A DNA stretch of 64,000 nt, taken from IMG/VR virus record IMGVR_UViG_3300028800_000077, one strand, 5' to 3'. Source of the stretch: an uncultured virus (IMG/VR IMGVR_UViG_3300028800_000077). Its lineage: Duplodnaviria; Heunggongvirae; Uroviricota; Caudoviricetes. Of the stretch, positions 3,646 to 40,178 are shown in pieces (within the stretch, counting starts at the first letter, position 1; each line of letters begins with the position of its first letter). The notes below the pieces were generated by a model that worked only from the letters and a program-made list of their open reading frames with translations, ran no database searches and had not been told where the DNA came from. Made by a program: the position numbers and the translations under genes.

Positions 3646-3839
3646 TTGATGAGACGGCGCATTGCCGCTTGCAGTTCTTCGCCGGAAAGGCGACGCCCGG
3701 TGCTGGCGGGGCCGAACGATGTCGATCCATGGAGCGGCTTGTTGCGGGCCGACGCCTTGGCCTTGCGCTCCTCTCGCTCGCGGTCTGGATCGCTTTGCAG
3801 GATGGCGCGGACTTCCTTGCGCAGTCGTGGACGCTTCAT
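3642..3839 (-). CDS. Small basic hypothetical protein
   Basis: ATG at 3839 overlaps upstream stop; coupled to the downstream gene. Confidence 0.4.
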   Translation of the reverse strand: MKRPRLRKEVRAILQSDPDREREERKAKASARNKPLHGSTSFGPASTGRRLSGEELQAAMRRLIK

Positions 3840-3997
3840 TTCACCCTCGACGCCAGACACCGCAAGGCCACCAGCACGCTTGCCGGTGGCCCGTTTTTCT
3901 CCCAACGCCAGACAGTGATCTTGTCGACCATCATCTCGGCAGCGAGCTTCCGCCGCCAGCCATCCGCGCCGTAGCGGACGACTGACAGGCGGCGCAT
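3836..3997 (-). CDS. Small Cro-like helix-turn-helix protein
   Basis: YGADGWRRKLAAEMMVDKITVWRWE matches an HTH pattern; starts 4 nt after the Ro60 stop. Confidence 0.6.
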   Translation of the reverse strand: MRRLSVVRYGADGWRRKLAAEMMVDKITVWRWEKNGPPASVLVALRCLASRVK

Positions 3998-4001
3998 CTC
4001 G

Positions 4002-5402
4002 CTACACGAGCGAGGCGGTTTCGATCTCGTGCATGAAGGCGAAGACCGCCTCGCTGAAGCCATCGATGTGCGTCCACTTCCCATAGCCCACGCCGTTCTT
4101 CGCGGAGGCGACGTTGATCATGTAACCCCGGCCCTTCGGATCGGGGAGCGTCTTCACGTTGCCGTGCAGGCGGTTGAAACCGTAGAGGCTGCTGGCCGAG
4201 CCGGTCGCCTGCTCGTCCGTCACCACAACGACGCGGTCGTAGTCGACGTGCGCGTTCAGGTGCGCGATGGAGTCGAACAGGAACGTGCCCTGATGCGGCT
4301 GGCTGTTCTTCAGCACATCCACGCCTGCCATGCCACGACGCGCCGGCACTTCAACCGTGCTGTTCGAGAACGAGAACATGCGGACGGCGTCGGCCGGAAA
4401 CATCGAGGCCAAAGCGCAGGCAGCATCCATGCGCGTCAGGTCCGACTTCGCCGACAGCTTCTCGTTCATCGAGTCCGACACGTCGACCACAACAGCCGTG
4501 CGGCCCGGCAGCTTGGGCATCGAGCCGATGCTGGCGATCAGCGCCGCATCAAGCTCGCGCTCGAAGCGGGGAGCCGCACGCGCCGCCGCGACGTAGCGGA
4601 ACGGCAGCACCATCTCGGCACCGCCCTTCTGTGCCACGATGGCCTCGCGCACCAGCGTCTCGTCGCAGCCGGCCTCGACCATGTTGCGCAGGTTGCGCAG
4701 CAGAGCGAGGTAGCCCAGCTTGCCCTCGCGGATCAGGCGCTCGAACGTGTCCTTCTTGCTCGCGCCTCCAGACAGGTTCGTCTCCCAAGTGTCAGGCGTC
4801 TCCAGCTTGCGCTCGGCGATGCGCTTGTAGAGCGCCGCGCGCTCGTCGTCGGCCGGCTCGGGATGCACGAGGAACATCACGTCGCGCAGCTTCACGGCAC
4901 CTTCGCGGTCGTACTTCGCGAAGTGGTATTCCTTGAAGTTGCCGAAGGCAGCCGCGAGGCCGCGCTTCATCTGCGCCGTGAGATCGCGCTGCTTCTGCGT
5001 CTGTCCAGCCTTCGGCTTCGTGGGCGGATTGGCCTTCCAGTAGAGCGAAATGAACTCGGCCATGTCGTCGACGCGGCGGATCACGTGCGGGATCGCATCG
5101 CCAAGGATCGGCGTGCCCGAGCCCGTCTTGGCCAGCGCCACGAGCAACCACAACGGCACGTGCCGCAGCTTGAACTGATTGCGCGCCTGAATGGCCAGCG
5201 CCGCCAGATCGGCGGGCGGCACGGCGAGCGCGAGTTCGCGGATGCGGTCGGCGACGCTGACGCCGTCCTCGTAGTGCTCGTCCTCCCAAAGCATGCACGA
5301 CAGGACAGAGCGACGGAGCGCCTGCATCGTGGTCATGCGAGCGGCCGGAGCACCCTCGGCCGTCTTCTCGGTGAACTTCAAAGCCTTGTTGGTACGAGCC
5401 AT
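4002..5402 (-). CDS. rsr: Ro60/Rsr TROVE-domain RNA-binding protein with C-terminal vWA domain
   Basis: EGAPA, LRRSVLSCMLWED..YEDG, KYDREGAVKLRDV, TPDTWE, ALLRNLRN, VLPFRY, vWA MIDAS DVSDSM, VTDEQ, IDGFSE; purine-rich SD GAAGGGAAG. Confidence 0.93.
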   Translation of the reverse strand: MARTNKALKFTEKTAEGAPAARMTTMQALRRSVLSCMLWEDEHYEDGVSVADRIRELALAVPPADLAALAIQARNQFKLRHVPLWLLVALAKTGSGTPILGDAIPHVIRRVDDMAEFISLYWKANPPTKPKAGQTQKQRDLTAQMKRGLAAAFGNFKEYHFAKYDREGAVKLRDVMFLVHPEPADDERAALYKRIAERKLETPDTWETNLSGGASKKDTFERLIREGKLGYLALLRNLRNMVEAGCDETLVREAIVAQKGGAEMVLPFRYVAAARAAPRFERELDAALIASIGSMPKLPGRTAVVVDVSDSMNEKLSAKSDLTRMDAACALASMFPADAVRMFSFSNSTVEVPARRGMAGVDVLKNSQPHQGTFLFDSIAHLNAHVDYDRVVVVTDEQATGSASSLYGFNRLHGNVKTLPDPKGRGYMINVASAKNGVGYGKWTHIDGFSEAVFAFMHEIETASLV

Positions 5403-5447
5403 GATCATCTTCCCTTCATCAAATTGAGAGTGACCCGGCAACAGTGC

Positions 5448-5582
5448 AGTGCAGGAACAAACGAAGACGGTAACGTGTGCGCTCTAACCGCTGAGCTACG
5501 CCGAAGATTGCCTCCGGCGACGGGACTCGAACCCGCGACCTCACCCTCCAATGGGAAGTAACCGTTCTCTACGCCATGCACT
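5448..5582 (-). ncRNA. yrlA: Y RNA, YrlA-type with permuted tRNA-like module (fifth of 5 in transcription order)
   Basis: Minus strand: terminal stem AGUGCA/UGCACU, handle UGGCGUAG..CGGUUACUUC/UUGUUCC, T-arm GCGGG-UUCGAGU-CCCGU, loop-closed acceptor-like stem, then D-arm UAGCUCAGCGGUUAGAGC; adjacent to Ro60. Confidence 0.88.
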
Positions 5583-5590
5583 ACATCGAA

Positions 5591-5721
5591 GCCGGGGAAC
5601 AAGCGATGACGGCACTGCCCTTGCGGGCTTTCCTTGCTCTACCACTGAGCTACCGAGGCGTTAGCCCCGAGGCGGGATCGAACCGCCGCACTAAGAAGTA
5701 GCCGTAACCTACGCCACCGAC
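5591..5721 (-). ncRNA. yrlA: Y RNA, YrlA-type (fourth of 5)
   Basis: Same handle; T-arm GGCGG-UUCGAUC-CCGCC, stem UCGGGGC-UAAC-GCCUCGG, D-arm UAGCUCAGUGGUAGAGC, extra GCCC-GCAA-GGGC hairpin. Confidence 0.85.
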
Positions 5722-5750
5722 GAACTCTACGCACTCGAACGCGCCTCGAA

Positions 5751-5833
5751 GTTGGGGAACAATCGTCGCCTGCGATGCTGGCCTTGCGGCCACACTTTAC
5801 AAGAGTGATGCAACAGACAACTACGCCACCAAC
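5751..5833 (-). ncRNA. Y-RNA-like unit without tRNA module (third of 5)
   Basis: GUUGG-UGGCGUAG ... AUUGUUCC-CCAAC; internal UGGCC-GCAA-GGCCA hairpin. Confidence 0.75.
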
Positions 5834-5842
5834 CATCTCAAA

Positions 5843-5953
5843 TCCGGGGAACAATCGGCGCATCGTGCTTAGAGGATTTGAACCTCCGTGCCGGCTGCGA
5901 CTGCTCGCCCCGGCACTCACACCAACGAAGTAACGACGACCTACGCCACCGGA
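5843..5953 (-). ncRNA. Y-RNA-like unit with GC hairpin plus T-arm (second of 5)
   Basis: UCCGG-UGGCGUAG..CGUUACUUC ... AUUGUUCC-CCGGA; GUGCCGG/CCGGCAC stem followed by GGAGG-UUCAAAU-CCUCU. Confidence 0.78.
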
Positions 5954-5964
5954 CAAATCTCGAA

Positions 5965-6030
5965 GCCGAGGAACAAACTCAAGCGGTGCTTTTTCAATTG
6001 CATGAAGTAACCGCCCGATACGCCATCGGC
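5965..6030 (-). ncRNA. Minimal Y-RNA-like unit (first of 5)
   Basis: GCCGA-UGGCGUA..GCGGUUACUUC ... ACCGC..UUUGUUCC-UCGGC, 66 nt. Confidence 0.72.
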
Positions 6031-6036
6031 AGCGAC

Positions 6037-6065
6037 GGTTTAATTGCAGAATGCAATTCGGTCAA
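6037..6065 (-). promoter_or_regulatory. Sigma70-like promoter for the Y RNA-Ro60 operon
   Basis: Minus strand TTGACC-N17-TAAACC ending 6 nt before the first RNA unit; the AATTGCA-GAA-TGCAATT palindrome (6042-6058) spans the spacer. Confidence 0.6.
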
Positions 6066-6272
6066 CCCTCAAAATGAAAAGGGCCACCGACAGGGTGGCC
6101 CCTCACCGCTACCTCGCCAACTTCAACGCGAGGATGCACTTTGCGGAAAATGTAACTGGCCTCTACGCTTGGGTGCTCTACATGGCGGCCTCCGGGCTGC
6201 GGGACGCTCGGCCATCAACCTGCGTCAACTCCCGCAATTTGCGCGTCTCACCGGATGTTCGCAAGATTGGCG

Positions 6273-17161: not shown

Positions 17162-17491
17162 ATGGACACCGGCATCCCCTGCCCGGCATGCGGCAGCGAC
17201 TCGTCCGACGTCGTCGATAGTCGGCCGACGCACGGCGCGTTCCGTCGTCGCCGGCAATGCGGATGCGGAGCCCGCTTCACGACCTACGAGATGGTCGACG
17301 AGGCGCAGCCTTCTCAGCGCAGCGTGATGCGCCAGCGGATCGCCGAGATGTCCAACGAGGAAGTGCTGGCGCTGGCCACGATACTCGAACAGGTCGACGT
17401 GCTGTTGAAGGCGTGCGGTGCGCCGACCTATCCACGATTTCAGAGGATGGCGCGGCGTCGCCCAGTGCCAGCCGAGAAGGTCGAGGCATGA
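17162..17491 (+). CDS. Protein with NrdR-like N-terminal zinc ribbon
   Basis: CPACG....VVDSR....[16 protein letters not shown]; no ATP-cone. Confidence 0.75.
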
Positions 17492-18600: not shown

Positions 18601-18860
18601 ACGCGCCATCATCGCCGCGTGATCCGGGGCTCGCGAACGCGGACTTGATCGAGGCCGCCTTCGCGTTCGGCTATGCGCTCGGTATGGATCGCGCGCTCAA
18701 CATCGTGGCTGAGAATGGCAAGAGATCGCCGTTCGTCGATGTCAAATCGGCGGTTGCGGCGATGTGCAGCAAGATTGTCGAGGAGGAGAAGGCCCCGCCG
18801 ACCTTTACCGAGGCGCGCGTGGCAGCAGCAAGGCGACAGGCAGAAGGGCTCAAGACATGA
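18597..18860 (+). CDS. Hypothetical protein
   Basis: ATGA coupling both sides. Confidence 0.5.
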   Translation: MNAPSSPRDPGLANADLIEAAFAFGYALGMDRALNIVAENGKRSPFVDVKSAVAAMCSKIVEEEKAPPTFTEARVAAARRQAEGLKT

Positions 18861-19738
18861 GTTACGATTTCGAGAAAATGGCCGACGAGCTTGAAGCGGC
18901 GGGCGACTATCGTGTGCTGCGCCACGTGCCGCAGTGGCCCGGCCCGCAGCCGTCGACGTGGGGTGAGTACGAGGACATTAAGGCCGCGATCTTCCTCGAC
19001 GTCGAGACGACCGGGCTCAATCCCAAGACCGACAAGGTGATCGAGCTTGTCATGATGCCGTTCGCCTATGGCGCAATGAGCGGTGTGATCACCGACATCG
19101 GCGAGCCGTACCACGCCTACAACGATCCGGGCATCGCTATCCCGCCCAAGATCACGAAGCTCACCGGCATCACCGACGAGATGGTGAAGGGCAAGAGCTT
19201 CGACGTGAAGGCCATCGACACGTTCGCGTCTGGCTTCCGCTTCTGCATCGCGCACCACGCCAAGTTCGACCGGCCGTTCGTCGAAACGATCTCGCCTGTC
19301 TTCACTGGGCTGCACTGGGCTTGCTCTATGGAGCAGGTGCCATGGGACGAGTTCGAGATCACGGGCCGCAAGCTGGACTACATCGCGTTCCGCCTTGGCT
19401 GGTTCTACGAAGCGCACAAGGCGCAGAACGATTGCCACGCCGCGCTGAGCATTCTCGCGCGCACGATCCCCGGCCGCGACACGACGTTCATGCACGCGCT
19501 GCTGAGCGAGGCACGCAAGCCGAACTATCGCGTGTGGGCGACGGGCTCTCCCATCGGCGAGAAAGACAAGCTCAAGGATCGCGGCTATCGATGGGAGCCG
19601 GCGCGGAAGACGTGGCACACCGAAGTCGGCAAGGACGAAGTCGACGCTGAACTCGCGTGGCTGGCGACGAACGCCAAGACGCCGGGCGCAGAGGCGGTCC
19701 CGATCTCGCCGCTCAATCGCTTCACCGACAGGGTGTGA
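18857..19738 (+). CDS. DEDDh 3'-5' exonuclease (DnaQ-like)
   Basis: FLDVETTGL, IAHHAKFDRPF, AHKAQNDC. Confidence 0.9.
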   Translation: MSYDFEKMADELEAAGDYRVLRHVPQWPGPQPSTWGEYEDIKAAIFLDVETTGLNPKTDKVIELVMMPFAYGAMSGVITDIGEPYHAYNDPGIAIPPKITKLTGITDEMVKGKSFDVKAIDTFASGFRFCIAHHAKFDRPFVETISPVFTGLHWACSMEQVPWDEFEITGRKLDYIAFRLGWFYEAHKAQNDCHAALSILARTIPGRDTTFMHALLSEARKPNYRVWATGSPIGEKDKLKDRGYRWEPARKTWHTEVGKDEVDAELAWLATNAKTPGAEAVPISPLNRFTDRV

Positions 19739-22057: not shown

Positions 22058-22705
22058 ATGCTCCACCTTGATTTTGGTTGCCAAGAGAGTAGTTTCCCTT
22101 CCCTAGCCAAAAGCTGGCCCGGCACCGCAACCGATAGCGGTGCGGTAGCCGTAGTGGGGGATTTTCCGCTGAGACGCTGGTACGTTGCGACCACGCAGCC
22201 TTGTGCTGAGCTTGTCGCCGAGGAGCAGCTTGGCCTACAGGGTTTTCAGCCCTTTGTGCCCAAGTGCCTGATCACACGCACGACCCGAGGGCGTCGCGTG
22301 ACCACCGAGCGTCCCTACCTGCCGAGCTACGTCTTCGTGCGGTTCGACATCCACGAAGACTACTGGGGCGCAATCAACAACACTCGCGGCGTGAAGCGCC
22401 TGATCTGCGGCGCTCCCGAGCGGCCATCGCCGATTCGTGACGAGGCGATGAAGATCATCCTTGATCGCTGCATTGGCCAGTACGTCAAGGCCGAGGAGAT
22501 CGACACGGCATGGTCCGGGCTGATAAAAGCCGGGACGATAATTCGCGTGACAGATGGGCCGTTCGAGGGGTTCGAGGGGCCGGTCATGTGGTCGCAAGCT
22601 GATCGCGTGCGAGCGCTGTTCACGTTCTTCGGCGCGCAGCGGGAAATCCCGTTGAACGTCAAGCAGGTTCGAGTTGTAGGCGAGGCAGCACGAAGGGTCG
22701 CGTGA
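22058..22705 (+). CDS. NusG/RfaH-family transcription antiterminator (true start may be GTG 22154)
   Basis: NGN: WYVATT, F.PFVP, PYLPSYVFVRFD, INNTRGV; KOW: GT.IRVTDGPFEGFEG, FFG. Confidence 0.88.
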   Translation: MLHLDFGCQESSFPSLAKSWPGTATDSGAVAVVGDFPLRRWYVATTQPCAELVAEEQLGLQGFQPFVPKCLITRTTRGRRVTTERPYLPSYVFVRFDIHEDYWGAINNTRGVKRLICGAPERPSPIRDEAMKIILDRCIGQYVKAEEIDTAWSGLIKAGTIIRVTDGPFEGFEGPVMWSQADRVRALFTFFGAQREIPLNVKQVRVVGEAARRVA

Positions 22706-35500: not shown

Positions 35501-37032
35501 AAGCCTATCGCGGGATCGACAAGCCGGACGCCTACGGAGAGCCGGCCAAGTTCACCGTCGACATCCATTCTGCCATTGAAGCGGGCAAGAAAGAATTGAC
35601 CGCTGAAAAGAATCTCGCGCTCGGCAAGGAGGTTTCGGAGAACAACGACTACGACGAGCAAGTGAAGATTGTCGGGTACTACCAAGGCAAGATGGACGAA
35701 CTGAACATGATCGATCAGTTGCGCCCGTTGGAGTTCGGCAACAAGTCCGACGCCGACAACTACGTCAAGCGCATCCGCTCGAAGTTCGAGAAGAAGGAGG
35801 AGCACAAGCTCAACCTGAAGCCGTTCAAGACGGAACTGCTGACGAAGCTGCGTGAAGACGTGAAGGAGATCGACAAAAAGTTCGACGAGTCTGCGCTGGG
35901 TCGCCGTTTCACCGAGGAGGAGTACAAGGCGAAGAAGGATGCGCTGGCTGAGATTTATCACAAGCGAGATCAGATCGTGGGTGAGTTCGCGCGCAGTCCT
36001 TACTCCACCAACAGCGGAGACGCGGCATCTGCTCCAACGCGCGCAGGCATCGAACAGATGATCGACGTGAACAAGGTAATGACGCCGGAGCAGAAGGCGG
36101 CAGCCAAGGCGGCCATCGTGTCGACGCCAGAAGTGAAAGCGCCGTGGCTCGACAAGATGGTGACAGCAGAGATTCCGGCATCGGGCGGCTCGCGTCAGGA
36201 GCCGGTGAAGGCGGGCTACGCCGACGAGCCGTTCGTGAAGCTGCCGGACATGCACATCGACCGGAACGGTTGCGCGTCGACGTCGCTCAAGGCGGGCGTC
36301 TCGAATGACTGGGACGGTGACGAGCATCGTGTCGTCTTGCGCGTGCAGGTGCCGCGTACCGCAGTGATCTCGGTGCCGGCTTACGGCATCAACATCAAAG
36401 CGGAGCGTGAAGTGGTCGTGGCTGGTACGGCTTGGAACAAGTGGGATGCGTGGGCGCACAAGGCCCCGGAGTTTGGCGTGCTGCCGATGGACGGCATGAA
36501 GTCTGACGATCTTGCGCTTGCGGCCGAGCCGGCGAATGCTTCGCCAAAGCCGTCATGGAAGGTCGCCGAACTTCTCAAGCCCGGTGGTCAGGCGTGGGAA
36601 ATGACGCCGACGGAAGTCGAGAAGTATGCGGACTATCAGAAGCTCTCGCCCGAGGACAAGGCGGCACTGATCGCCGGTCACGCGGCGCTCTACAAGGACT
36701 GGACAGCGCCGAAGGCGGAGGGCGGCATGGACCCGGCGGAAGCGGATAAGTGGGCCGAGCATTTGAGCCTTTCGGACAACGACAAGGCCGCGCTCGTGGC
36801 TGGCCATGTGAAGCTGTCGGACTTGGCGTCGAAGGATGACATCGAGGACGCGAAGCTGAAGATGCACATCAACAAGGGCAACGCGGCGTGGGCGAAGCAG
36901 GAGGCCGACGCGAAGAAGGCGTGGGAAGCGATGACGCCTGAGCAACAAGCGCAGGCCAAGGCCGACACCGACAAGTATGTGAAGGAAATGTCCGCCGAGA
37001 TGGACAAGGCAGAGTTGGCGCAGGCGGCGTGA
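32512..37032 (+). CDS. 1506-aa multidomain putative internal head protein: three tagged modules including ART-PolyVal-like and R-S-E ADP-ribosyltransferase-like domains
   Basis: MPLQKG.SQ..IS.NI.EL..AG.PQKQA.AIA N-terminus; tags at 32761, 33166, 34129; LYHGT..GFYFT..GFDGI..QIKSA; AYRG (35503), ASTS (36274), EREVVV (36403). Confidence 0.75.
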   Translation: MPLQKGSSQAAISANIAELVRAGHPQKQAEAIAEKTARGNDDFSDLIYQFLSQKAWWDYPRKLVKDAASKRKIAKLISGFVGDGFDPSEQREADGKWTAGGGGLQKGAKKNTKWTVAHVGKNKVEVAINPTQDDIETLLANADDDDPSVRLIKDTDGKVYAWDGFWATHRRMADVLGITPDEMDEGFGFPLAWKDGRKLKFTDDSGSVIDKKGWIAQDEYDPGEPREQDGKWTSGGGGGGAAPKPKAAKPNREKTNTPAFKNWFGKSKVRSATGKPLVLYHGTTVDFDQFDRSKANPESDWGSGFYFTNTPEDVSVNYAGFGPDLTNKIQNRAEQIAGEEDKNYDDPDIQARARAEFAQHEGAVMPVYLKMDKPFVVGGDNETSLDYEEERDDEGEPTGVEKGTLVDFIKNLRGIAEEYHDGDVDDLVGKLVEAGYGGGISASDLSKLASEDEKFGYYTDDDGKLVSKEILRRALQETGFDGIVDHTVDTKFGSSKKIGKPMEGVTPDTTHYIAFEPTQIKSASGNKGTYDPKSPKVNDEWNEADHPRGQPENAGEFASNPSGGASAQPPAPPAKEPHPEVVNVGGDLWNKKTAGRLENEYVAAYPEIDKIVTKSVGETAPAAASEEDEDESDDDAPYIPEDWDMVSDDDKEETKNKWKQDAFDDFYNSEVESWIDNGDQLKESVENVVNDFKDGSERDWAHEAIQDYLDDNDGENGKAIPFTTEQLLSAINVESVDAGKYSDSKEVDASFDEDVLEKLAAAAGVKPDVLSEDVRKDLLDAVNKEGNAYAEKVAYKVDPPEYLKDGVDEQEEDYWDQIEDKQKFKHAEQYLSHKWEQAVSDHGASKDDDAEGDEITALPKKFDPMQSDEGSQNYKLTQQVARHVSVQRAADLIKQRGLSKLSAGNLFGTISHLDGKIWHAWKGSSTSPDAIALQVAVADELGGRLYEFKDVSRQRGVDYANSNYASIGGYEGLKAYVRAKWETTQYMMDKAGIHTVEAYRGIDKPDAYGEPAKFTVDIHSAIEAGKKELTAEKNLALGKEVSENNDYDEQVKIVGYYQGKMDELNMIDQLRPLEFGNKSDADNYVKRIRSKFEKKEEHKLNLKPFKTELLTKLREDVKEIDKKFDESALGRRFTEEEYKAKKDALAEIYHKRDQIVGEFARSPYSTNSGDAASAPTRAGIEQMIDVNKVMTPEQKAAAKAAIVSTPEVKAPWLDKMVTAEIPASGGSRQEPVKAGYADEPFVKLPDMHIDRNGCASTSLKAGVSNDWDGDEHRVVLRVQVPRTAVISVPAYGINIKAEREVVVAGTAWNKWDAWAHKAPEFGVLPMDGMKSDDLALAAEPANASPKPSWKVAELLKPGGQAWEMTPTEVEKYADYQKLSPEDKAALIAGHAALYKDWTAPKAEGGMDPAEADKWAEHLSLSDNDKAALVAGHVKLSDLASKDDIEDAKLKMHINKGNAAWAKQEADAKKAWEAMTPEQQAQAKADTDKYVKEMSAEMDKAELAQAA

Positions 37033-40000
37033 TGGGCAACCCCAACGTCGTCGACATCCTGCACATGGAAGTGAGCCAGAACCTACCGTACTGGTTGTCG
37101 CCGGAAGTGAAGGACGCGCACAGCAAGGCGAAGATCAGGGCGTTCGTGAAGGCGAAGCGCGCGAAGCCGAAGCGTGCCGAGGACAAAGCGCCGGGCGTGC
37201 GCTGGGTGGAGAGTGAGCATCCGCGCGGCCAGCCGCAGAACGCTGGAGAGTTTACGTCCGCTGGGGGCGGGGGTGGTCCTGCTGTTCGTCACGGAGGCAA
37301 GCAGCCCAGTGGCGAACAGCAGCCAACCAAAGTGAGCCTGCCGAGCGGGAGCGCTGCGTTCCTGTCGATGAAGCAAGCACACGAGCTTCGCGAGACGCTG
37401 CGGCACGCGCTGTCGCAGCCGGCCGAGCGCCAGCCGAACGGTGAGGAGCAGCCGATCAAGGCGGAACTGCCCAGCGGTGGCGTCGAGTACATGACGCGCA
37501 AGCAGGCGAAGTCGCTGCACGACACGCTTTGGAACAGGCTCGGCGGATCTCCGGATAGTCCGCCAGTGGAGTTGCAGTCGGTGCCGGCCGATGCGTTCGT
37601 GAAGGCGCGCGACAAGTCGACGAAGCCGGAGTTCCTGTCGCCGCATCCTGCGGAGGAACTGGCCGATCACAAGCTGCTCATGAACAAGGATGGGACGGTC
37701 GGCGTTTCGGTTGACCCCAAGGGAGACATCCAGAACGTCTTCAACAACGGCGGCCCCAAAGGCGCTGGTGCCATGGCGATGGTCGCGGCCATCTTGGCGG
37801 GTGGCAAGACGCTGGATTGCTACGACGGCTTCCTGCCGAGCTTCTATCACCAGTTCGGGTTCGAGGAAGATCAGCGCATGAAGTTCAATCCGGACTTCGC
37901 GCCGCCGGGCTGGGACTTCTCAAAACGAGGGCAGCCGGACATTGTATTCATGTCCCTGCGTCACCATATGGGAAGTGAAGGTGTGTCTGAGGCTCTGGAC
38001 CGCGCTGCGGATCATGAGCATTGGACGACCCCGGAAAGGAGCAAGGTTTATGGCAACGACTGGGACGCCGCAAAAGAGCGAAGCCGCGCAGCAGCAGCCG
38101 CAGCGGACGCCGGAAGAACTGAAGCTCCTCGCGACGCTGGAGCGGGCGCTGGGTCGGAAGATGACCCCGCAGGAAGCCTTTCTGTCTTTGGAGCAGGCGC
38201 ACTATCTCGGCGAACTGTAGCCGCTGACGCGCAGCCTACGGGTTGGCGCGGCCTGCTTTCTGGACTTCTAAAGCTATTCATCGAAGACAAGCCCGAGCCG
38301 GTTGCGGCCGGGGTTGCGATCTTCTGCCGTCCCGATCACGACGGAACGCCGATGCGCGTGCTGCTGTTGCGCCGCTCGCCGGATGAGGAGAACTACGCCG
38401 GCTACTGGAGCCTGCCGGGCGGCCACATCGACGAGGACGAGACGCCGGAGCAGGCTGTCCGCCGCGAGGCGTCGGAGGAGATCGGCTGGATACCGGGCGA
38501 TCTCAAGGTGCTGGATCAGACGGACAAATACGTCACCTATTGCGCGTTCGTCGACGACGAGTTCGCGCCGATGCTGAACAGTGAGCACACGGACTATCAG
38601 TGGTGCCCGCTCGATAACCTGCCGAAGCCGGTGCATCCGGGCGTGCGGGCCACGCTGGAAGGCACGACGCGCAAGGTCGCCGACGACAGCCTGCCGGTGA
38701 CGTTTGCGATGGATCGCTTGGTGGTCGAGGCGCAGTACCGCGACACGTTCCCGGTGATGGCCAACGATTTCGAGAGCGCGCGGTCGCTCGATGTCGACGG
38801 CAAGATGCACGTGGCGATGACGCACATCTCGAAGGCGTGCGTGTCGCCGTATCTCGGCTCTGAGATTCCCGACTGCCTCAAGCTCGGGCTCGATCCGAAG
38901 AAGGTCTATCACCTGTTGCGCGATCCGAGCGAGCTTGCCAAGGCAGCCGCCACGTCGAACCGCATGCAGGTCTTGATCAAGCATGAGCCCGTGAACGCGG
39001 CTGACTACAAGCCGAGTATCACCGTGGGCGCGACAGGATCGGATGCGACGTTCAACGCGCCGTATCTCGATAACTCGATGGTCATTTGGTCACAGAAGGC
39101 CATCGATAAGGTCTTGGACGGCGAGCAGGAAGAACTCTCGTCCTCGTACCGCTACACGCCGGACATGACGCCGGGTGTTTACGAGGGCGTGCCCTTTGAC
39201 GGTGTGATGCGCGGCATCGTCTTCAACCACGTAGCGCTGGTCAAAAAAGGTAGAGCCGGACCCGACGTTGTCGTGGCCGACGAAGCCATGGTTCAACAAC
39301 AGGAGACAGAAATGCCGGAAGCTGTGAAGCTCTCGCGAATTGCGGCTCGGACTCAGGCGGCGCTCACCGTCTACTTGATGCCGAAGCTCGCCAAGGATGC
39401 GGCTCTCGATCTCACGTCGGTTCTCAAGGACGTGACGCCGCAGAACTTCAAGGCGCGCAAGGCCGCCATCTGGAAGGGCGCGAAGGATGCGGCCGACCCG
39501 ATGCTCAACCCGGCCGCCAAGGCTGCCGGTCCCGGCGGCCACGGTCCCGATGACATCGCGATGCGCCTGCTGGACATGATCGAAGGCCAGTCGGCCGCCG
39601 ATCCCGTGCCGGACGTCGCGCCGGCCGCTGTTGCGGCTCCTGCCGCTGCGGCCGCGCCGCCGGCTGCAGCCGCTACCGCACCGAACTCTGCCGTTCCGGC
39701 CAAGCCGGACGACAAGAACAAGAAGGTCATGGACGCCTTGCGCGCCAAGGGCATGAGCGAAGACGACATCTCCGAGATCGGCAGCATGATGGGCGGCGAG
39801 CCCGCAGAAGACGAGGACGACCCCAAGATGAAGCCTGAAGTCACCAAGGCCGCGATGGACGAAGCCATCAAGAGCGCGGTCGCTGAAACCAACGCGGCCA
39901 ATCGCGCGAAGGCCGAGGCCATCGAGATCGCTCGCCCGTTCGTGGGCGTCGTCTCTCCGCTGGCTCACGACAGCGCCGAGGCCGTCCTGCGCGCCACGCT

Positions 40001-40178
40001 GGGCACGCTCGGCGTCGACCACAAGGACCTGCCGGCGGAGGCGCTGAAGCCTCTCCTGCTCAAGCTGCCCAAGCCCGGCAGCACCACCACGCCGAAGCCG
40101 GCTCTCGCCATGGATGCGAAGGCGGCCGAGGGCTACGCGGGCCGTTGGGCGAACGCTCAGCGCATCAGCCACGCCTAA
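37029..40178 (+). CDS. Fusion: tagged GNAT-like domain + Nudix hydrolase + DUF2213 prohead protease/scaffold
   Basis: KGAG...A...GG.TLDCYD..LP.FY..FGF; Nudix box GGHIDEDETPEQAVRREASEEIG; ISKA.V.PY.G.EIP, ELSSSYRY, NHVALV..GRAGPDV; Ala/Pro-rich scaffold tail; position before capsid. Confidence 0.85.
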   Translation: MMGNPNVVDILHMEVSQNLPYWLSPEVKDAHSKAKIRAFVKAKRAKPKRAEDKAPGVRWVESEHPRGQPQNAGEFTSAGGGGGPAVRHGGKQPSGEQQPTKVSLPSGSAAFLSMKQAHELRETLRHALSQPAERQPNGEEQPIKAELPSGGVEYMTRKQAKSLHDTLWNRLGGSPDSPPVELQSVPADAFVKARDKSTKPEFLSPHPAEELADHKLLMNKDGTVGVSVDPKGDIQNVFNNGGPKGAGAMAMVAAILAGGKTLDCYDGFLPSFYHQFGFEEDQRMKFNPDFAPPGWDFSKRGQPDIVFMSLRHHMGSEGVSEALDRAADHEHWTTPERSKVYGNDWDAAKERSRAAAAAADAGRTEAPRDAGAGAGSEDDPAGSLSVFGAGALSRRTVAADAQPTGWRGLLSGLLKLFIEDKPEPVAAGVAIFCRPDHDGTPMRVLLLRRSPDEENYAGYWSLPGGHIDEDETPEQAVRREASEEIGWIPGDLKVLDQTDKYVTYCAFVDDEFAPMLNSEHTDYQWCPLDNLPKPVHPGVRATLEGTTRKVADDSLPVTFAMDRLVVEAQYRDTFPVMANDFESARSLDVDGKMHVAMTHISKACVSPYLGSEIPDCLKLGLDPKKVYHLLRDPSELAKAAATSNRMQVLIKHEPVNAADYKPSITVGATGSDATFNAPYLDNSMVIWSQKAIDKVLDGEQEELSSSYRYTPDMTPGVYEGVPFDGVMRGIVFNHVALVKKGRAGPDVVVADEAMVQQQETEMPEAVKLSRIAARTQAALTVYLMPKLAKDAALDLTSVLKDVTPQNFKARKAAIWKGAKDAADPMLNPAAKAAGPGGHGPDDIAMRLLDMIEGQSAADPVPDVAPAAVAAPAAAAAPPAAAATAPNSAVPAKPDDKNKKVMDALRAKGMSEDDISEIGSMMGGEPAEDEDDPKMKPEVTKAAMDEAIKSAVAETNAANRAKAEAIEIARPFVGVVSPLAHDSAEAVLRATLGTLGVDHKDLPAEALKPLLLKLPKPGSTTTPKPALAMDAKAAEGYAGRWANAQRISHA
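38050..38220 (+). CDS. 56-aa gene nested out of frame within the protease fusion gene
   Basis: SD AGGAG 8 nt before ATG; amphipathic helical product LLATLERALGRKMTPQEAFLSLEQAHYLGEL; host frame is low-complexity here. Confidence 0.55.
   Translation: MATTGTPQKSEAAQQQPQRTPEELKLLATLERALGRKMTPQEAFLSLEQAHYLGEL

Follow-up and report, generated by a model that had tools for sequence, protein, structure and literature searches.

Where a phage gene for a Ro60 protein is preceded by a run of small self-closing units, the questions arise of what these units are and whether so varied a set beside one protein gene is unusual. The locus considered here lies in a 64 000-nucleotide (nt) stretch of DNA from an uncultured soil phage (IMG/VR record IMGVR_UViG_3300028800_000077; this whole stretch is referred to below as the window). 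Five units (U1–U5; 6030–5449, minus strand, about 580 nt) are situated directly 5' of a gene with TROVE and von Willebrand factor A (vWA) domains (5402–4002). The original prediction, made from the sequence alone, was that they are Y-like RNAs with a constant handle and five different inserts, and that five distinct adaptors for one Ro60 ring are unusual. Our analysis points, with a probability that we put at about 80 %, to a phage Y-RNA operon in which one promoter would give a single transcript with five Y RNAs followed by the Ro60 mRNA, and the identification of the units as Y RNAs is well supported by sequence comparison. The multi-Y-RNA operon is real; it is a new example, not a new type, and the claim of rarity is unsupported.

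Y RNAs are described as modular, with a terminal stem to which Ro60 binds, mainly at the 5' strand, and a second module for the binding of an effector; they serve as tethers between Ro60 and effectors, PNPase among them, or as gates of the ring (Chen et al., 2014, PMC4201824; bioRxiv 10.1101/312249). Two to four Y RNAs are present in vertebrates (Chen et al., 2014, PMC4201824), and at least two each in Salmonella, Mycobacterium smegmatis and Deinococcus radiodurans (PMC4201824; bioRxiv 10.1101/312249). The idea that additional Y RNAs let Ro60 join a wider range of components is found in Chen et al. (2014, PMC4201824).

The product of the gene behind the array (4002..5402, minus strand; 466 amino acids; ATG at 5402, preceded by GAAGGGAAG) is identified as Ro60 by its sequence, by its MIDAS residues (metal-ion-dependent adhesion site) and by a predicted fold of HEAT repeats and a vWA domain, in agreement with the TROVE–vWA gene originally called here. 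Pfam TROVE (PF05731) is matched with an expectation value (E) of 2.8e-17 (63.5 bits against a cut-off of 23) and PHROGs phrog_850, 'RNA-binding protein', with E 6.2e-51. In the MIDAS motif D307-V-S309-D-S311, which aligns with VDVSGSM of the Ro60 of Thermus phage phiLo (9KOP; the best solved relative by sequence, E 1.4e-16, residues 12–399), D307, S309 and S311 are invariant in 15 homologues. Strands and helices alternate from residue 302 in the AlphaFold2 model (predicted local distance difference test score 76.7; predicted template modelling score 0.74), and the 12 Foldseek matches listed, of 13 at E ≤0.001, are all Ro60 chains, from phiLo, D. radiodurans, Xenopus and human (template modelling score, TM, 0.61–0.71).

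Reading of the minus strand together with the model searches described below bore out the five self-closing units 5' of this gene. The closing stems are GCCGA/UCGGC in U1 (6030–5965, 66 nt), UCCGG/CCGGA in U2 (5953–5843, 111 nt), GUUGG/CCAAC in U3 (5833–5751, 83 nt), GUCGG/CCGGC in U4 (5721–5591, 131 nt) and GUGCA/UGCAC in U5 (5581–5449, 133 nt), where the stem can be extended to 9 base pairs (bp; 5585–5445). Four of the predicted lengths stand; the last unit had been given as 135 nt. Spacers of 11, 9, 29 and 9 nt separate successive units. Each begins with its 5-bp stem followed by UGGCGUA and ends with UUGUUCC followed by the complementary stem strand, and G(U/C)UACUUC is found in U1, U2, U4 and U5, U3 carrying GUUGCAUC instead; the terminal motifs, the differing but complementary stems and the motif shared by four units are thus as first reported. 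Five of the 13 minus-strand copies of TGGCGTA in the 64 kb fall in the array, as do five of the nine copies of TTGTTCC, and the gapped pattern with a gap of 30–60 nt gave two matches against 0.01 expected.

The shared handle consists, in order, of the terminal stem, a bulged U (C in some loci), a 2-bp element, an asymmetric internal loop, an 8-bp second helix that ends CGG:CCG, and N-UACUUC. In the window the strands of the internal loop are GGCGUAG (5') and UUGUU (3'); across the family its 5' side is Y-G-W-A and its 3' side about seven nucleotides ending U-K-U-U. The 5' strand reads GGCG-U-A in all five units, followed by G in U2–U5 and by U in U1. A motif GNCGAAN0-1G has been proposed as the recognition element for Rsr and compared with vertebrate GGUCCGA (Chen et al., 2014, PMC4201824); the window motif is one mismatch from the published GNCGAA, and the position concerned is A, U or C across the family.

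The scan of related Ro60 loci with a covariance model of the handle, which had been suggested as a check, was carried out so that array length and payload diversity could be tallied. TROVE relatives were gathered from 15 IMG/VR loci, eight genome loci and three phage records, and then from the best 80 of 370 IMG/VR relatives. A strict script requiring exact GGCGNA and TTGNNCC found nothing useful in the relatives, and a plain listing of motifs was too noisy; a loose stem-plus-motif script, used for seeding only, gave 75 matches against 14 on reversed sequence and 7–18 on shuffled sequences. From 47 seeded units we built an alignment (A2) and from this a model (R1) with a 15-pair handle structure. 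A tRNA-bearing unit of the IMG/VR relative L002 was kept out of A2 because MAFFT misaligned it, and R1 still recovers it at 30.5 bits. By eye, the regions upstream of the TROVE genes in L001, L007 and L002 contain two, two and five units of the same architecture. Eight loci were excluded as duplicates (L036, L048, L068, L079, L081, L082, L089 and L101) and two for having no upstream DNA (L066 and L075).

At E <1e-3, R1 gave 73 matches in 27 sources, all of them 5' of the TROVE gene and on its strand, and within the window it found the five units only. On 70 further loci it gave 118 and 88 matches; six of 97 sources had no match, namely L011–L015, in which TROVE is only 36–37 % identical, and L023. 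In 90 of 90 tallied loci the matches at this threshold lie 5' of the TROVE gene on the same strand, and the window units, 46 to 628 nt 5' of the Ro60 gene on its strand, are placed likewise. For a second model (R2) we used 118 units from 37 other loci and none from the window, its training alignment having been collected with R1, which included window units; searched against both strands of the whole window, it returned exactly U1–U5 (E 9e-16 to 6.6e-10) and nothing further up to E = 1. The scores were 49.5 bits for U1 (E 3.5e-10), 49.6 for U2 (E 3.3e-10), 48.4 for U3 (E 6.6e-10), 57.4 for U4 and 71.7 for U5 (E 9e-16). A minus-strand regular-expression match at 36553–36427, inside an open reading frame (ORF) of 1506 amino acids, was recovered by neither R1 nor R2 and was therefore treated as chance. 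In whole genomes (four bacterial and that of Caulobacter phage CcrColossus; 150 candidates per genome scored), strong full-length matches cluster at TROVE loci, and the few weak partial matches are probably tRNAs. We also noted, in Bradyrhizobium genome G003 (contig 174, 22151–22362), a second pair of strong handle-model matches away from the locus L021, which may mark a second TROVE locus or a prophage.

Both helices of the handle, 15 pairs in all, show compensatory changes at every pair. In an alignment of 70 units (A3), 95.0 % of cells pair, a share that shuffling lowers to 63.2 % (none of 500 shuffles reaching the observed figure), with changes on both sides in 15 of 15 pairs and 38–52 % in slid controls; in one of 118 units from loci outside the building of R1 (A5), the figures are 94.4 % against 63.0 %, again with changes on both sides in 15 of 15 pairs, and 43–52 % in slid controls. 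These alignments were fitted to the model and the seeding script required a terminal stem, so that, for the seeds, the covariation of helix 1 is in part circular; units were at no stage selected on helix 2. RNAalifold, given no structure, recovered both handle helices as well as the T-arm, with compensatory changes, from 16 units of the U2 class. The handle covariation is thus borne out across homologous loci.

Constrained folds gave each unit a different distal module, and these, with the alignments to the Rfam YrlA model, agree with the five inserts first described. U1, which lacks any tRNA-like part, has a loop (UACUUC...UUGAAAAA) of some 24 nt; U2 has a long GC hairpin and a T-arm (GGAGG-UUCAAAU-CCUCU) with no D-arm; and U3, in which GUUGCAUC occupies the place of GUUACUUC, has a 4-bp hairpin with a 7-nt anticodon-like loop (CUUGUAA) and a GCAA-tetraloop hairpin. 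U4 consists of a T-arm, a closed 7-bp acceptor-like stem, a D-arm and an extra GCAA-tetraloop hairpin, and U5 of a small hairpin, a T-arm, a closed 7-bp acceptor-like stem and a D-arm. The latter two keep the UA linker of the tRNA elbow along with the arms, in permuted order, and have no anticodon loop because the handle takes the place of the anticodon stem. The Rfam YrlA model (RF02553), proposed as an Infernal check, aligns in permissive mode with U4 over the full model (37.5 bits, E 2e-6, positions 1–114) and with U5 over the core only (32.0 bits, model positions 23–86), but both scores fall short of the gathering score of 69 bits. The T, AS and D stems are paired in both cmscan alignments, and the constrained folds agree. 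Relatives fall short likewise (34.6–48.3 bits in L001, L002, L003, L007, L008 and L009), and no Rfam family reaches its gathering score anywhere in the 64-kb window. U4 and U5 are therefore labelled YrlA-type and not Rfam-certified members, and U1 and U3, with neither T-arm nor D-arm, and U2, with a T-arm only, are Y-like RNAs outside the YrlA subfamily.

Arms of this kind could also be what is left of a phage tRNA cluster, decayed or rearranged and with no functional tie to Ro60. ARAGORN does report a 'tRNA-Ser(act)' at 5510–5591, overlapping U5, GenBank has tRNA genes inside units of CcrColossus and of Brevundimonas phage Kikimora, and T-arm and D-arm sequences match tRNAs of other organisms in metagenome contigs (four rhizosphere runs). 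However, over 270 units keep the handle, with compensatory changes, three of the five window units have no D-arm, the arms of U4 and U5 stand in permuted order, a TROVE gene adjoins every tallied locus and strong matches in whole genomes are at TROVE loci, and this explanation, already disfavoured, is in our estimation very improbable. The ARAGORN call in U5 is most likely a false tRNA. In the same way the 5' half of YrlA-type units is labelled as tRNA in L026 (Kikimora, GenBank; 3924–3998), L025 (3884–3954), L019 (2425–2497) and the window (5510–5591), as Ser, Asn, Tyr and Ser, respectively, a small hairpin before the T-arm being read as an anticodon arm; these annotations are probably false.

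A separate observation concerns the tRNA-bearing unit of L002 (2656–2813), which belongs to a five-unit array. It is closed by a stem of 19 bp, carries the handle typical of the family and has as its insert an almost entire tRNA whose arms follow the natural order (D-arm, anticodon arm with UAC, T-arm); this scores 62.5 bits with the Rfam tRNA model and is called tRNA-Val by ARAGORN. Its acceptor stem is imperfect, and 5' of the D-arm there is a competing closed hairpin.

The tally across loci bears directly on whether the window is out of the ordinary. A motif classifier divided 272 upstream units into 135 with no tRNA-like arm, 85 with T-arm and D-arm, 49 with a T-arm only and three with a D-arm only, so that the commonest class in the family is short units without a tRNA-like arm. 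The U1 class is represented in related loci by 98 distinct short units with a UACUUC...UGAAA loop and the T-arm-only class, as in U2, by 30 distinct units of up to 125 nt; U3-like units (UGCAUC/UUUCAUC plus UUGUA) occur in L027, L029 and L042, and all five unit types of the window recur in other loci. Among 90 loci, three have one unit, 35 have two, 28 have three, 11 have four and 10 have five, with one locus each at six, seven and eight. Three of these rows repeat others or parts of them (L060 from L058, L071 from L070, and L043, which is probably part of L045), and the counts for L035 and L047 each include one partial match that is probably a real tRNA. Thirteen of the 90 rows (12 after correction of L035) have at least five units; the window is therefore among the top seventh and not exceptional. 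The claim of rarity fails: two to eight units are the rule, CcrColossus having eight, and each of the five unit types was found again elsewhere. We found no description of heterogeneous arrays of at least five phage Y RNAs in the open-access literature.

The nearest comparison is with CcrColossus (JX100810), whose TROVE gene is of the same clade (about 69 % DNA identity over the gene) and whose array, also 5' of the gene, has the same handle (UGGCGUA ... UUGUUCC) and the same mixture of short, T-arm-only and YrlA-type units. It differs in having eight units instead of five and longer closing stems, of up to about 25 bp. The eight handle-bearing units identified by the model lie 5' of gp139 (record 109694–108503; L024 3901–5104, minus strand), whereas Table S2 of Chen et al. 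(2014) has three YrlAs for CcrColossus and one for each of the other 21 phages. In the GenBank record, part of one unit is annotated as tRNA-Gln and several stems as rho-independent terminators.

YrlA and YrlB of Salmonella Typhimurium and M. smegmatis (PMC4201824; RF02553) likewise lie beside the Ro60 gene on the same strand, have a GNCGAA-type motif on the 5' strand of the terminal stem and comprise one type with permuted T-arm, closed acceptor and D-arm together with a smaller type without the full tRNA mimic; indeed, M. smegmatis YrlB has a T-arm only, like U2, and the M. smegmatis Y RNAs are 5' of the gene, as in the window, whereas those of Salmonella are 3' of rsr (PMC4201824). The window differs in having five units instead of two, GGCGUAG where those have GNCGAA(N)G, and a phage setting with no RtcB or RtcA nearby in Pfam and PHROGs scans of its ORFs. 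The Ro60 of phage phiLo (PMC12135203; 9KOP, 9L5Y) is the closest solved structure to the window protein by sequence and fold (TM 0.71); it binds two Y-like RNAs encoded upstream (Yrl1 and Yrl2), which gives two RNAs against five here, and forms complexes with host PNPase in vitro (PMC12135203), but the proteins are only 22–23 % identical. The RYPER complex (Rsr–Y RNA–PNPase) of D. radiodurans, with Yrn1 and Yrn2, and the vertebrate Y RNAs follow the same logic of a Ro60-binding stem plus an effector module, and no sequence similarity between them and the window units was detected.

On the minus strand, from 6065 to 4002, a promoter-like site is followed by U1–U5, a 46-nt gap and the 466-codon Ro60 gene. 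The site (TTGACC-17 nt-TAAACC, 6037..6065, minus strand) matches the consensus at 8 of 12 positions, and its -10 element ends 6 nt before U1. A sigma-70-like promoter had been predicted at this point; its position is that of the family, in which a site matching at 9 or more of 12 positions is found within 60 nt 5' of the first unit in 31 of 86 loci (none of 86 in-gene control windows), with a -10 element ending a median of 6 nt before that unit, whereas its quality is less convincing, as taken up below. Immediately upstream, a terminator-like GC hairpin followed by a run of T residues (6078..6104, minus strand; 11-pair stem, seven GC pairs) would, from its sequence, close the preceding transcription unit just before the array promoter. 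The promoter spacer includes a 7-nt inverted repeat on the minus strand (6058–6052 and 6048–6042; AATTGCA, 3 nt, TGCAATT), and TTGCA...TGCAA palindromes or TTGCAA words are present 5' of the first unit in 24 of 89 loci; this repeat may be an operator.

Because the position of the promoter is conserved in the family and no terminator-like site was called between U5 and the gene, co-transcription of array and gene followed by processing is likely, by analogy with M. smegmatis, in which two Y RNAs 5' of rsr come from a single precursor (PMC4201824; bioRxiv 10.1101/312249). The same layout would suit an array acting mainly in cis, as a 5' leader through which Ro60 binds its own mRNA and controls its translation, processing or stability, the units then not being five stable trans-acting RNAs. 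Indeed, a terminator scan called no terminator-like site in the gap of only 46 nt between U5 and the start codon, and in all 90 tallied loci the units are directly 5' of the gene on its strand, at a median distance of 52 nt. However, the classes of distal module are conserved over distant loci, and this tells against such a leader, since a set of plain binding sites would need none of them. The Salmonella Y RNAs lie 3' of rsr, and the Y RNAs located 5' of it in M. smegmatis are cut from their precursor and occur in association with Rsr (PMC4201824; bioRxiv 10.1101/312249); in locus L086 (3812–4016), two units are just 3' of the TROVE gene and one is 5', a 3' placement that resembles Salmonella. 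We regard a mainly cis-acting leader as improbable, and roles in cis and in trans are compatible with each other.

Our current working hypothesis is that the array provides a set of adaptors for one phage Ro60, which on the evidence assembled here is the best reading. Every RNA would close on itself through the common handle, host nucleases would cut the precursor within the 9- to 29-nt spacers, and the Ro60 ring of the phage would bind the handle of each unit. The distal modules, that is, a short purine-rich loop, a T-arm only, hairpins and a full tRNA-like elbow, would then engage different host factors, for which the S1/KH domains of PNPase and tRNA-elbow-binding proteins are candidates, and RNA decay or repair would be redirected during infection, or access to the Ro60 ring gated.

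A weaker alternative is that the tRNA-like units are chiefly decoys, or competitive inhibitors, of tRNA-targeting defence nucleases or tRNA-binding defence proteins, and that Ro60 only stabilizes them. The T-arm, D-arm and UA linker of the elbow are retained in U4 and U5, and in U3 and many units of relatives ARAGORN takes a 7-nt anticodon-like loop for an anticodon. Moreover, competitive inhibition of an anticodon nuclease by the tRNA-like domain was suggested for YrlA (Hughes et al., 2020, PMC7790460), and phage Bas63 has a Ro60-like protein that acts against the Ppl defence system (PMC11482910). However, U4 and U5 have no anticodon loop, and this weakens the simple reading of them as anticodon-nuclease decoys. 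U1 and the commonest, short class (135 of 272 units by regular expression) have no tRNA-like part at all, and no defence or counter-defence gene was recognized beside the array in Pfam and PHROGs scans of the window ORFs. Decoys as the chief function seem unlikely to us, and the adaptor set is preferred.

Several points weigh against a Y-RNA operon of adaptors and should be set beside the evidence for it. To the partial circularity of helix 1 covariation and the sub-threshold YrlA scores of U4 and U5 must be added that a consensus promoter scan made no call at 6065–6037, where the -10 element is weak. Folding of the single sequences gave modest z-scores (-2.3, -1.6, -2.1, -0.8 and -0.6 for U1–U5, respectively), the folding energy of U4 and U5 being no better than that of shuffled sequences. 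In the recognition motif the window has U where the published motif has A, and the candidate host partners named above are entirely inferred.

The phage setting of the operon is apparent from structural genes downstream on the plus strand, recognized with PHROGs, for the small and large terminase subunits, portal, head protease, major head protein, tail sheath, tape measure, baseplate and tail fibre. DNA of the window is present in 17 runs, all of rhizosphere metagenome DNA; the nearest virus record (G001) is a 40-kb fragment that does not include the region of the array. The closest TROVE genes in named genomes are those of Mesorhizobium, Hoeflea, other Rhizobiaceae and Bradyrhizobium, and among phage records those of Caulobacter, Brevundimonas and Xanthomonas phages. 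As originally noted, the window has no recognizable RtcB; neither this nor another RNA ligase was found among 51 ORFs searched with Pfam or 25 searched with PHROGs. An 82-codon ORF (3836–4084, minus strand) with no Pfam match runs in a different frame across the 3' end of the Ro60 gene and may extend the operon. The phage also encodes, among 17162–17491, 18764–19738, 22058–22705 and 37029–40178, an NrdR-like zinc ribbon, an RNase T-family exonuclease, a NusG-like protein and a 1049-amino-acid protein in which a NUDIX-like region is fused to a head maturation protease (Pfam and PHROGs).

The 2-bp element beside the bulge of the handle differs among loci (GG:CC, GC:GC, AG:CU, GA:UC or GU:AC) but in 70 of 86 loci every unit of the locus has the same one; 1000 shuffles gave 30.7 such loci on average and at most 40. 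For example, five units in L040 have GA:UC, four in L096 have GC:GC and four in L058 have AG:CU. From sequence, this uniformity would fit a single Ro60 that reads every unit at its locus; it must be counted against that interpretation that shared descent of tandem units could also give the likeness. A more ambitious possibility, which we consider doubtful, is that phage Ro60 loci have a small, conserved repertoire of at least three Y RNA classes (the short UACUUC...UGAAA loop, the T-arm-only type and the full tRNA elbow), each recruiting a different host factor, with the 2-bp element as a locus-specific code.

The weight of the discovery is modest, as several Y RNAs per genome beside Ro60, in phages too, modular handles and varied effector domains have all been described already. 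For annotation it is of direct use, since the Rfam YrlA threshold misses all five units, and tRNA finders and GenBank mislabel such units as tRNA-Ser or tRNA-Gln; the handle model also picks up the non-tRNA-like classes that homology searches miss. In CcrColossus, a phage of the tractable Caulobacter crescentus, eight units are now apparent where three were listed. The uniform handle element within each locus provides a concrete hypothesis on the specificity of Ro60 for its Y RNAs. If the repertoire and its code were true, the 2-bp element would pair the RNAs of a phage with its own Ro60, apart from that of the host or of a rival phage, and the handle would serve for display in general, even of an almost entire tRNA such as that of L002.

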